This document shows positions 13,330 through 22,835 of a stretch of 64,000 nt of DNA, piece after piece. Source of the DNA: an uncultured Lachnospiraceae bacterium (GTDB lineage Bacteria > Bacillota > Clostridia > Oscillospirales > CAG-272); NCBI GenBank assembly GCA_964403505.1, contig CAYOFP010000005.1:7655-71654 (forward strand), read 5' to 3'. Below the pieces are notes generated by a model. That model was not told where the DNA came from and did not search any database. It saw nothing but the letters and a program-made list of their open reading frames with translations. Position 1 is the stretch's first letter; each line of letters starts with the position of its first letter. The position numbers and the translations under genes are program-made.

Positions 13330-13433
13330 GTGATAATTATACCACCATTTACAAAATGAAACAACAGAATATTTTTTTGTAAAAAAACTTGACAATTTCA
13401 TTTGAGTGTGATATTATTTATAAGCGCATTTAT

Positions 13434-13507
13434 GCGGATGTAGTTCAATGGTAGAATCCCAGCCTTCCAAGCTGGTCGTGCGGGTTCGATTCCCGTCATC
13501 CGCTCCA
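13434..13507 (+). tRNA. tRNA-Gly (anticodon TCC)
   Basis: It folds by hand into a cloverleaf. The acceptor is GCGGATG/CATCCGC, the anticodon loop is CTTCCAA, the T-loop is TTCGATT, and CCA is encoded. Confidence 0.9.
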
Positions 13508-13510
13508 AGC

Positions 13511-13536
13511 TTATTGCCGGTATATACCGGCAATAA
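13511..13536. repeat. perfect 26-bp palindrome in the tRNA-Gly/tRNA-Arg spacer
   Basis: TTATTGCCGGTAT|ATACCGGCAATAA has 13-nt arms with no mismatches. Confidence 0.95.
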
Positions 13537-13540
13537 TTAT

Positions 13541-13617
13541 CTACCCTTAGCTCAGCAGGATAGAGCAACTGCCTTCTAAGCAGTAGGTCGAGGGTTCGAA
13601 TCCCCCAGGGTAGGCCA
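13541..13617 (+). tRNA. tRNA-Arg (anticodon TCT)
   Basis: The acceptor is CTACCCT/AGGGTAG, the D-arm is GCTC..GAGC, the anticodon loop is CTTCTAA, and the T-loop is TTCGAAT. There is one A-C mismatch in the T stem. CCA is encoded. Confidence 0.85.
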
Positions 13618-13622
13618 AATAC

Positions 13623-13700
13623 GGTGGGTGTAGCTAAGTTGGTCATAGCGCCAGGTTGTGGCCCTGGAGGCCGTGGGTTCGAATCCCATCACTCACCCCA
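13623..13700 (+). tRNA. tRNA-His (anticodon GTG) with encoded G-1
   Basis: An extra 5' G can pair with discriminator C. The acceptor is GTGGGTG/CACTCAC, the anticodon loop is TTGTGGC, the T-loop is TTCGAAT, and CCA is encoded. Confidence 0.9.
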
Positions 13701-13733
13701 GAAAAAAACCGATGCTTTAGCATCGGTTTTTTC
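13701..13733 (+). terminator. rho-independent terminator of the tRNA cluster
   Basis: The hairpin AACCGATGC-TTTA-GCATCGGTT is followed by TTTTT. Confidence 0.85.
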
Positions 13734-13737
13734 AACT

Positions 13738-13901
13738 AAATCCGTCCTGCGGACGGGTGAAATCCATCTATGATGGATGAAATCACTTCGTGATGAAATC
13801 CGACTTCGTCGGGATAGAGACGGATTTAATTTCATCTGAGGCGCAGCCGAAGATTTCATCCGAACAGAGTGAGGATTTCATCGCACTTTGTGCGATTTCA
13901 T
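13738..13901 (+). repeat. tRNA-proximal hairpin/linker array, copy A
   Basis: Four short hairpins built on ATCC..GGAT bases are separated by GAA(A) (13741-13815). Four segments spaced by ATTTCAT follow (13823-13901). It is paralogous to 42392-42562 in inverted orientation. Confidence 0.9.
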
Positions 13902-13916
13902 TAGGTCTGTTTTGGG

Positions 13917-13995
13917 TTTACGAGAGCTCAAATCCATCAGCCGAAATCGTAAGAACATCTCTTTCGCAACCTCTTTACACACTCAAACACCAATT
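13917..13995 (+). repeat. X module copy 1 (tRNA 3'-end-like repeat: ..ACGAGAGCTCAAATCCATCAGCCGAAATCG..AAACACCAAT)
   Basis: It is roughly 70% identical by eye to 15247-15310. Related copies lie at 42353-42391 and 42134-42166 on the minus strand. Confidence 0.8.
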
Positions 13996-14031
13996 TTGAT
14001 ACAGTGTGTCATGATTGGTGTTTGTTTTTTT
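13984..14031 (+). terminator. rho-independent terminator
   Basis: The hairpin AAACACCAAT-(19 nt)-ATTGGTGTTT is followed by GTTTTTTT. Confidence 0.7.
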
Positions 14032-22599: not shown

Positions 22600-22835
22600 A
22601 AAAAATGCCGCCCCGTATCAACAGGGCGACTGATTATCGCTGTACCACCTGAATTCGCATATAAGAATATGCCTCATTGCGCTGTAACGGGACGACCGTG
22701 CAGGTATTTCCCCCTGCCTGCTCCGAGGTGAAATGCAAAAATATCCGTATCCGTTCGCCTCTCAGCCCATGGGCGCCCTTCTCTTCTGAACACTTCCGAT
22801 ATTTTGCTGCCTTTTCATTGCATTTACATTAGTTT
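22600..22835 (-). promoter_or_regulatory. T-box leader (Phe specifier) controlling pheST
   Basis: The minus strand carries the T-box sequence AATTCAGGTGGTACAGCG (reverse complement of 22641-22658). A terminator follows (GTCGCCC-TGTTGATAC-GGGGCGGC then ATTTTT). Stem I elements are present (GCAATGAAAAGGCAGC..., AGAGA). A candidate specifier is UUC followed by A (gtgTTCAgaag). A TTGACA-18-TAAACT promoter lies at about 22860-22831. Confidence 0.85.

Follow-up and report, generated by a model that had tools for sequence, protein, structure and literature searches.

The Gut-1 motif was described from 43 sequences by Weinberg et al. (2010, Genome Biol 11:R31, PMC2864571), who rated it certainly an RNA and not a cis-regulatory one, and reported of its context only that it comes from human gut metagenomes. 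Its Rfam model, RF01706 (type 'Gene; sRNA'), consists of three hairpins with GUGAAAU linkers. Here we analyse two arrays of short hairpins, copies A and B, in a 64,000-nt stretch of DNA (the window; contig CAYOFP010000005.1, positions 7,655 to 71,654) from an uncultured Lachnospiraceae bacterium. Both are bona fide members of the Gut-1 family: over the whole model (1-77 of 77) copy A scores 64.0 bits (E = 2e-10) and copy B 70.6 bits, against a gathering score of 50. The original prediction, made from the letters of the window, knew of no described element with this layout; the 5' half of the arrays is in fact Gut-1 (RF01706, PMC2864571), and hence they are no new kind of element. A full-text literature search turned up no work on Gut-1, or on the protein family PF05635 together with tRNA, later than the 2010 paper.

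The 5' half fits the curated model end to end, with the same three hairpins, GUGAAAU linkers and T-rich CAAC-TAAAT lead-in, and the family is one of gut bacteria. Gut-1 as published is 77 nt long with three hairpins; the element found here has seven and spans about 170 nt, a length that the tail brings to about 250 nt. A fourth hairpin, a helix that we call P1, an inverted 3' half with three more hairpins, and the tail are all without description in the 2010 paper, as are the position of the element behind tRNA and transfer-messenger RNA (tmRNA) genes and its association with a PF05635 gene. The Rfam model is only half of a fixed bipartite seven-hairpin element. The hairpins of the 3' half, the competition of P1 with hairpin H1, the conserved tail and the PF05635 link had also been overlooked by the original prediction. 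What appears to be new, then, is the bipartite architecture with its H1/P1 alternative, its place after the terminator of a tRNA or tmRNA gene, and its near-obligatory link to one clade of PF05635 proteins.

Other known systems share some of these features. CsrB and RsmZ are protein-sponge RNAs with repeated short motifs between hairpins. The array likewise carries many copies of one short motif, alike within the molecule, on variable hairpins; their motif, however, is GGA in variable number, whereas that of Gut-1 is (G/A)UGAAAUC, fixed at 4 + 4 with half the copies in reverse complement. In E. coli, 3'ETS-leuZ is reportedly an RNA sponge derived from the 3' external transcribed spacer (3'ETS) of a tRNA. 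It resembles the array in being a functional non-coding RNA from the 3' flank of a tRNA operon, made from the tRNA promoter (as we propose for the array), but its place is after the mature tRNA and ahead of the operon terminator, and its pairing partners are small RNAs, whereas the array lies beyond the first terminator and has a repeated modular design. The 23S rRNA intervening sequences of Leptospira and Coxiella carry a PF05635 open reading frame (ORF), lie inside 23S helices and are cut out by RNase III. Common to both are a PF05635 gene at a stable-RNA gene, a strongly structured flank and a stable-RNA promoter (a proposed one in our case); the intervening sequences form one long stem inside 23S rRNA, while here an array of short hairpins follows a tRNA or tmRNA. 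ToxI-like antitoxins of type III toxin-antitoxin systems are tandem identical repeats of about 34-45 nt, with a terminator and the gene of an endoribonuclease toxin behind them; the units of the array are non-identical and half of them are inverted, and the gene downstream is PF05635 and not ToxN, AbiQ or CptN, in a scan that left out the PADLOC library.

A pattern scan of one genome per species yielded at least 120 loci with related arrays, and about 140 related loci entered the comparison overall. Among the matches listed are Oscillospiraceae, Acutalibacteraceae, Ruminococcus, Faecousia and 'Eubacteriales' metagenome-assembled genomes (MAGs) of gut and rumen; the sources are gut or rumen Clostridia MAGs almost throughout, the metagenome loci include records titled human gut metagenome, and one IMG/VR contig carries a true array. 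In every cluster with both types of linker, TGAAAT repeats come first and ATTTCA repeats follow, never the reverse, and 50 of 58 complete elements have exactly four of the 5' type and four of the 3' type, the exceptions being mostly single point mutations in a linker. The eight linkers are nearly invariant 9-mers, (G/A)TGAAATC-type in the 5' half (L0-L3) and the complementary GATTTCAYC in the 3' half (R1-R4), between which stand seven hairpins of variable sequence (H1-H7). The consensus of the 5' part is a variable terminator (T1) followed by TTTTTCAACTAAATCC-H1-GTGAAATC-H2-GATGAAATC-H3-GATGAAATCC-H4-spacer, and that of the 3' part GGRYGGATTTA-ATTTCATC-H5-GATTTCATC-H6-GATTTCATC-H7-GATTTCAYT. 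While 128 distinct stems occur among the upstream terminators of the relatives, their flanks, CCA-GAAAAA and TTTTTCAAC, are constant. Linkers follow one another at 16-31 nt at every position (50 elements). Within any one element the linkers are of one variant, GATGAAATC, GTGAAAT or, in Weinberg's sequences, GTGATAT, and this uniformity points to a single trans-acting reader rather than to structure alone.

The hairpins are conserved as structures. We built a covariance model from a near gap-free seed (alignment A4) with a hand-set structure, the automatic consensus structure from a MAFFT alignment (A3) having proved too noisy, and analysed its 80 best sense matches. The alignment of these 80 relatives was fitted to the model's structure, a bias in its favour, but independent parsing of the stems agrees with it. 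Stem cells are paired in 95.7% of cases, against 75.7% after shuffling and 26-43% with the partners slid along; 38 of 47 pairs have changed on both sides (25.5 in shuffles) and 640 cells are compensatory (166 in shuffles), values that none of 500 shuffles reached. The three consecutive variable hairpins that define Gut-1, with their (G)UGAAAU linkers, covary in the window copies and relatives as the family description would have it: 16 of the 19 pairs of H1-H3 are changed on both sides, H1 being 95.9% paired with all six pairs (6/6) so changed, and H2 and H3 being 97.6% and 97.2% paired. Parsed across 50 elements, each hairpin position shows 14-24 distinct stem sequences, and the stems are 87-96% Watson-Crick, falling to 38-63% when 3' arms are swapped between elements. 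All seven hairpins covary. The full-length model scores copy A at 101 bits in sense and 32 bits in antisense orientation, and copy B at 135.7 and 34.8 bits. Selection on hairpin structure with conserved linkers, as originally proposed from two copies, is thus borne out. The prospect then raised that only two copies exist, their stems drifting without compensation, is not: there are at least 120 related loci, and the stems of the 80 aligned relatives compensate.

Built into the 5' domain is an alternative fold. L0 and the 5' arm of H1 (TAAATCC+RYCC) are together complementary to the GGRYGGATTTA that stands just before the first 3' linker, and the resulting helix, P1, is mutually exclusive with H1. 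At least 5 extra complementary nucleotides are found in 44 of 58 elements, against 22% in shuffles. There are four covarying variants, CACCC/GGGTG, CGTCC/GGACG, CGCCT/AGGCG and CGTCT/AGACG, and the pattern is present in divergent members too (L205 and L232, for example). On the 80-sequence alignment P1 is 93.2% paired as compared with 87.9% in shuffles and has 69 compensatory cells as compared with 29, levels attained in 0 of 500 shuffles. With P1 enforced, the predicted energy falls by an average of about 6 kcal/mol, and the minimum-free-energy fold of copy B includes it. A further pairing, between 5' and 3' linkers to give a rod of four-way junctions, is the choice of RNAfold, but at 91.9% paired against 90.6% shuffled it reflects conservation only, and degenerate L1 linkers (ATAAAT, AGAAAT, TAAAAT) occur without compensation; we keep it only as a possibility.

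The strongest result concerns a gene. When ORFs within about 3 kb of 64 arrays were clustered, a single recurrent neighbour emerged, a protein of about 115 amino acids that starts MAENKLADLS and carries the motif RS(G/A)TSIGANIRE; its gene lies immediately downstream of the array, co-oriented with it, in 20 of the 64. Its family is PF05635, '23S rRNA-intervening sequence protein' (E = 1e-25), a four-helix bundle; among solved structures it comes closest to the uncharacterised five-chain entry 2RLD (E = 8e-30). To our knowledge, PF05635 is known only from 23S rRNA intervening sequences, from Avd of diversity-generating retroelements and from uncharacterised pentameric crystal structures (2RLD). 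We then reversed the test, taking 80 metagenomic loci picked solely by a relative of the protein (61-88% identity). Among the 60 that have at least 280 nt of upstream sequence, the array lies directly upstream of the PF05635 gene in 56 (93%), and 35 of the 60 have a same-strand tRNA within 420 nt. Array and downstream gene are always co-oriented. In 14 of 61 such loci no more than 34 nt separate the start codon from the start of the last linker, too little for a promoter, and the array would then have to be transcribed there; in many others the last linker abuts a strong promoter, with its -35 box TTGAAA directly after ATTTCAC. The genes that follow are very diverse and, judged by eye without a database scan, resemble GNAT acetyltransferases, MazG, cytidine deaminase and P-loop kinases. 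The next gene often overlaps the PF05635 stop codon by 4 nt (ATGA) and differs in almost every locus (seen in L165-L244, e.g. L176, L196, L205, L214, L218, L226 and L230), and the PF05635 gene looks like a portable first gene placed before unrelated genes.

On the upstream side of the element, ARAGORN places the 3' end of a same-strand tRNA, of at least 12 isotypes, 120-137 nt upstream of the array in 29 of 64 loci; reading the upstream sequences by hand raises the count of tRNA-type ends directly before the array to about 39 of 63, and in one locus (L073) the upstream gene is a tmRNA (157 bits). The array is always on the strand of this gene, and the junction is stereotyped: CCA-GAAAAA, a variable hairpin, then TTTTTCAAC. 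The link to tRNA that the two window copies had suggested is therefore real and general without being universal, about 60% of arrays coming directly after a tRNA or tmRNA 3' end with its terminator. A third sub-family, without tRNA, differs in its 5' hairpin, bears a large 3' terminator and occurs in unrelated contexts, and no target-site duplication could be recognised at its boundaries. In five of its members (L050, L051, L105, L119, L156) a further conserved non-coding stretch follows the 3' terminator (at 1100-1200 in L156, for example), comprising a TATAAT-like box and then GGGTTTGGGCTTAGCCCATAAAGTATTTGAC..GTCAAATGC with two small palindromes; it may be a second unannotated RNA or an operator.

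Downstream, a conserved tail recurs. The order in L232 is tRNA-Tyr, terminator, array, PF05635 gene, kinase-like gene, tail (GAGAGTTCAAATCCATAC...CATCTTTTTTGTAGCCCTTAGCCA), terminator and a second, degenerate array; a tail of the same type directly follows both window arrays, and in L232 and L161 such a tail closes the PF05635 cassette or precedes the next tandem unit. L232-type cassettes excepted, the tail motif is confined to the neighbourhood of arrays. We considered the tail as the right end of longer cassettes and gave this up, since arrays do not generally flank cassettes on both sides. The start of the tail is T-loop-like (GAGTTCGAATYC). At tandem-unit junctions (L062, L082, L131, L161, L232) the upstream tail ends ...TTTTTTGTAGCCC(A/T)TAGCCA, ...ACA or ...CAA and adjoins the next GAAAAA-terminator, mimicking the CCA-GAAAAA junction after real tRNAs. 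An integrase att or arm site was also considered and rejected: there is no integrase nearby, and the right-hand tail, which stays the same whichever tRNA precedes it, is no displaced copy of that tRNA's end.

The element is multi-copy: contig ends account for many of the matches, L161, L140, L079 and L082 carry tandem units, and Weinberg's data contain four Gut-1 copies at a 240-nt period. In an independent short-read assembly of the same strain (Logan SRR9335148; L245, L246), compared over window positions 13469-13853, contigs stop inside tRNA-Gly and restart in the 3' half of the array; the tRNA cluster with its array behaves as an assembly-breaking genomic repeat.

In the window, both tRNA loci carry an array. 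Copy A follows tRNA-His(gtg) (13624-13700, plus strand; ARAGORN, with an Rfam tRNA match of 68 bits), the last gene of a Gly-Arg-His cluster (13434-13700) that is preceded by a promoter-like site at 13389-13417 (promoter scan), and the encoded CCA end of this tRNA abuts the element. The hairpin and linker architecture noticed there originally was recovered from the sequence. T1 occupies 13702-13732, an A-run followed by the hairpin CCGATGC-TTTA-GCATCGG and a T-run (13709-13732), the two runs giving it a bidirectional look. There follow on the plus strand L0 (13733-13743, CAACTAAATCC), H1 (13742-13756, CCGTCC-TGC-GGACGG, its 5' arm doubling as the 5' arm of P1), L1 (13757-13764, GTGAAATC), H2 (13762-13778, ATCCATC-TAT-GATGGAT), L2 (13776-13784, GATGAAATC), H3 (13782-13794, ATCAC-TTC-GTGAT), L3 (13792-13800, GATGAAATC) and H4 (13798-13815, ATCCGAC-TTC-GTCGGGAT); the Rfam match (13733-13804) runs from L0 through H1, L1, H2, L2 and H3 to L3. 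The 3' arm of P1 (X'dist, 13819-13828, GACGGATTTA) has its partner, TAAATCCGTC, at 13737-13746. The 3' half (13829-13902) lies outside the Rfam model and consists of R1 (ATTTCATC), H5 (13835-13853), R2 (13852-13860), H6 (13858-13876), R3 (13874-13882), H7 (13880-13896) and R4 (13894-13902, GATTTCATT), with tandem G.A pairs in the internal loop of H5 and in H6. Its four ATTTCAT linkers start at 13829, 13853, 13875 and 13895, at spacings of 24, 22 and 20 nt rather than the 20-23 first given, and the inserts of 17, 15 and 13 nt between them are each a hairpin (H5-H7). The tail (13903-13979), conserved and common to copy B, holds more AAATC-type motifs, and a second intrinsic terminator, T2, follows at 13984-14031 (CAAACACCAAT...ATTGGTGTTTG, then T7). 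Neither T1 nor T2 is listed by the consensus terminator scan; both were read directly from the sequence.

Copy B lies on the minus strand, from 42599 to about 42340, behind tRNA-Ser(tga) (42600-42688; ARAGORN, Rfam), which has a promoter-like site ahead of it at 42749-42721. Its terminator (42567-42599) reads GAAAAA, TCCGTCGAC-TTTT-GTCGACGGA, TTTTT; the array (42390-42567; Gut-1 match 42492-42566) has the layout of copy A, with L0, H1-H4, the P1 partner, R1-R4 and H5-H7, and its tail (42330-42389) reads CTGTTTTTGGTTTACGAGAGTTCAAAACCATCATCC..ACATCTTTTT. The two copies align with 86% identity across about 270 nt, and their similarity overruns the end first assigned to copy A by some 60-80 nt, to roughly 13965-13979. 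The three compensatory stem changes reported between them are all present: from copy A to copy B, GTCC/GGAC becomes ACCC/GGGT, CAC/GTG becomes CCCC/GGGG and CGAC/GTCG becomes CGCC/GGCG. Allowing up to one mismatch, the window contains GATGAAATC 50 times, where shuffled sequence has 29.4 +/- 5.2 (0 of 100 shuffles reach 50), and 14 of the 50 matches fall inside the two arrays. Neither tblastn nor a motif search found a PF05635 gene or a remnant of one in the window; its copies are orphans, array and tail without the gene.

Downstream of copy B is a gene for a Fic-domain protein with an N-terminal helix-turn-helix (41086-41985, minus strand; Pfam Fic, E = 5e-16), and a small ORF nearby (40353-40643) has, by eye only, the look of an XRE-type regulator; the two (40353-41985), standing beside tRNA-Ser, resemble accessory or island-like genes.

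How might such an element act? We give about even odds (a probability of roughly 0.5) to its being a structured RNA, made by read-through from the tRNA promoter, that serves as a leader or multivalent platform for one partner. The array would act as single-stranded RNA of the tRNA strand: RNA polymerase would start at the strong tRNA promoter, and a fraction of it would read through T1 and transcribe the array. In about a third of the family the transcript would continue into the PF05635 gene, the array forming that gene's leader, whereas for orphan copies, among them both in the window, it would end at T2 to give a small stable RNA; T2 of copy A is so placed that it would end a plus-strand transcript that had passed T1 and the array. 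The identical linkers between the hairpins would make of this RNA a multivalent platform for a single trans-acting partner, probably a protein and possibly the pentameric PF05635 protein. Co-transcription past a tRNA terminator had been among the original proposals, and it is the reading that context, in the form of orientation and of the promoter-less loci, favours.

Several observations point to the plus strand. The constant orientation of the array to both the upstream tRNA and the downstream gene argues for a single plus-strand molecule, most simply RNA, and the spacing of 16-31 nt suits a single strand with hairpin inserts and excludes duplex sites in helical phase. H5 contains a tandem G.A/A.G internal loop in 25 of 58 elements and never the complementary TC/TC, and H6 and H7, in individual sequences read by hand, often have the same tandem G.A loop; the only linker position that varies shows 53 G.U cells and no more than 9 non-pairs. 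With the sense-over-antisense scores of the full-length model, these G.A loops and G.U cells point to the plus strand. Counting G.U against A.C in the inner stems was uninformative as a test of strand (10 and 15 in about 1770 pairs). Folding energy makes the left half stabler on the plus strand in 52 of 58 elements and shows no difference for the right half; we give this little weight, since the stems are all Watson-Crick and the difference reflects loop parameters.

Other observations weigh against this reading. The array has no visible promoter of its own, and T1 looks strong. The inner stems are almost purely Watson-Crick, with G:T at 0.56% and A:C at 0.85% of about 1770 pairs, below the adjacent terminator stems (2.8% and 1.5%); selection on RNA alone usually leaves more G.U, though the stems here are very short. 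In linkers and loop types alike, the 3' half mirrors the 5' half as its reverse complement, so that a protein reading single-stranded UGAAAU would find its motif in only half of the linkers on either strand. A clostridial PF05635 protein (L126) has, by our own count, about as many basic as acidic residues, which gives no hint of a nucleic-acid binder. Lastly, orphan copies keep the structure without a gene in cis, and a pure leader role is therefore not the whole story.

The most serious competitor is a role as DNA, the hairpins forming in single strands or cruciforms. The array would then mark the end of a small cassette (terminator, array, PF05635 gene, cargo and tail) that colonises the site just after the CCA of tRNA or tmRNA genes, or the place where such a cassette lands or recombines. 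We consider it unlikely on present evidence, yet sequence analysis of the kind made here does not separate it from the RNA reading. Near-perfect Watson-Crick stems without wobble bias speak for it, as do the overall quasi-palindromic layout and the loops on the ATTTCA strand (GAA, GCA, GTA and GNRA-type); GNA and GNRA-type loops are the classic stable loops of DNA mini-hairpins. The signs of multiplication also suit it, with contig-end matches, tandem units, the assembly break and the four copies at a 240-nt period, as do the units' start right after ...CCA, the tandem tails that end ...GCCA or ACA before the next GAAAAA-terminator, and the one copy on a phage-like contig beside a weak terminase match. 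So, too, does the tRNA-His locus, which in the window bears an array with a tail only and in a related organism (L169) an array with the PF05635 gene.

Other findings speak against such mobility. Neither an integrase, transposase, recombinase, Rep, reverse transcriptase, integron integrase nor a REP-associated tyrosine transposase (RAYT) recurs within about 3 kb of the 64 arrays, and no Rep, integrase or recombinase gene lies near the window copies. Target-site duplications and identical terminal repeats were not found. Like repetitive extragenic palindromes (REPs), bacterial interspersed mosaic elements (BIMEs), miniature inverted-repeat transposable elements (MITEs) and attC sites, the arrays are multi-copy, hairpin-rich intergenic elements near terminators; but REP and MITE copies share their sequence within a genome, whereas the stems of the array differ and covary, and no terminal inverted repeats were seen. 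With attC it shares a structure conserved more than its sequence, attC being one long imperfect hairpin as against seven short ones here. In 41 PF05635 loci with at least 1.5 kb of downstream sequence a further array was found in none (0/41), by a regular expression that misses degenerate arrays such as the second in L232. The strand-specific G.A loops and the bias of G.U over A.C fit one functional strand, though this could be a DNA strand.

The only clearly phage-borne array (L001 5180-5420; IMG/VR 3300031867_000663) is followed by GGTAACTTGCC four times and about 15 CTATCTGCTATCGG-type units, array and repeats lying upstream of a weak terminase-large-subunit-like gene. The region ahead of a terminase gene often holds packaging sites or origins. 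A phage origin of the element was considered and set aside: there is one true array among 44 pattern matches in viral contigs, and only 2 viral contigs have the PF05635 gene, both near contig ends.

It is improbable that the array is a row of binding sites in duplex DNA, in which eight or nine convergent copies of a palindrome-like GGAT-GAA-ATCC would be bound by a dimeric or oligomeric protein, either to control the PF05635 promoter, with the array as its operator or upstream regulatory region, or to form a roadblock or insulator after tRNA genes, which are highly transcribed. That all linkers of an element share one variant, as in co-evolution with a single reader, that the last linker abuts a strong promoter in many loci, and that the number of sites is fixed at 4 + 4 would all be in keeping with this; the original prediction, noting a spacing near two helical turns, had compared the array with iterons and recombinase arm sites. 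The spacing, though, is 16-31 bp at each position across 50 elements, so that helical phase (multiples of about 10.5 bp) is not kept, and no recombinase, Rep or transposase gene recurs nearby. Nor would duplex sites give a reason for the spacers to be covarying palindromes, and in 14 of 61 loci the array has no promoter beside it.

A further reading is that of two convergent Gut-1-type RNAs, the 5' half transcribed from the plus and the 3' half from the minus strand, meeting at the centre and each displaying (G/A)UGAAAU linkers with UUC or UGC loops; this, too, we regard as quite improbable. The 3' half does resemble Gut-1 on the opposite strand, at 30 (A) and 27 (B) bits, each half has the reverse complements of the other's loop types, outer pairs that are U.G on the left (71 cells) turn into C.A mismatches on the plus strand of the right half (42 cells), and the A-run and T-run of T1 could terminate in both directions. 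But these opposite-strand matches are far below threshold, and in none of the sub-families is a leftward promoter conserved on the right-hand side of the array. It is only as plus-strand features that the tandem G.A loops of H5-H7 make sense, and both P1 and the constant 4 + 4 layout speak for one unit. Decaying, functionless repeat DNA we can hardly credit: there are gene-less orphans, both window copies among them, and some arrays with point-mutated linkers or missing hairpins, but hairpin potential has been kept through hundreds of compensatory changes in many genera, at least 50 of 58 elements share one architecture, and what separates the window copies is compensatory rather than random change.

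Two other RNAs in the window may be recorded. A T-box leader match at 22619-22827 (minus strand) covers the full Rfam model (1-219) with 87.4 bits (E = 1.4e-17; gathering score 93); a scan at curated thresholds narrowly misses it, but it is probably a genuine T-box riboswitch. A Cobalamin riboswitch match at 44576-44704 (plus strand; partial, model 48-166) has 40.3 bits against a gathering score of 31.5; an ORF begins about 50 nt further on, at 44754.

Taken with its surroundings, Gut-1 might tentatively be seen not as a free-standing small RNA but as the structured arm of a hitherto unrecognised module composed of terminator, seven-hairpin array, PF05635 gene, variable cargo gene and tail, which would specifically occupy post-CCA sites of tRNA and tmRNA genes in gut Clostridia, be expressed by read-through, multiply, and leave orphan arrays behind. 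For annotation, the element explains assembly breaks next to tRNA genes in the taxa that carry it. An orphan of Rfam since 2010, without host, context or function, Gut-1 now becomes testable through its full element, its genomic address and its gene partner; an orphan RNA is linked to an orphan protein family, both of them attached to stable-RNA genes. If the proposed reading is true, PF05635, the family of the 23S intervening-sequence proteins and Avd, would be tied to a second class of stable-RNA genes, a hint of a dedicated, possibly RNA-mediated, targeting of stable-RNA loci.

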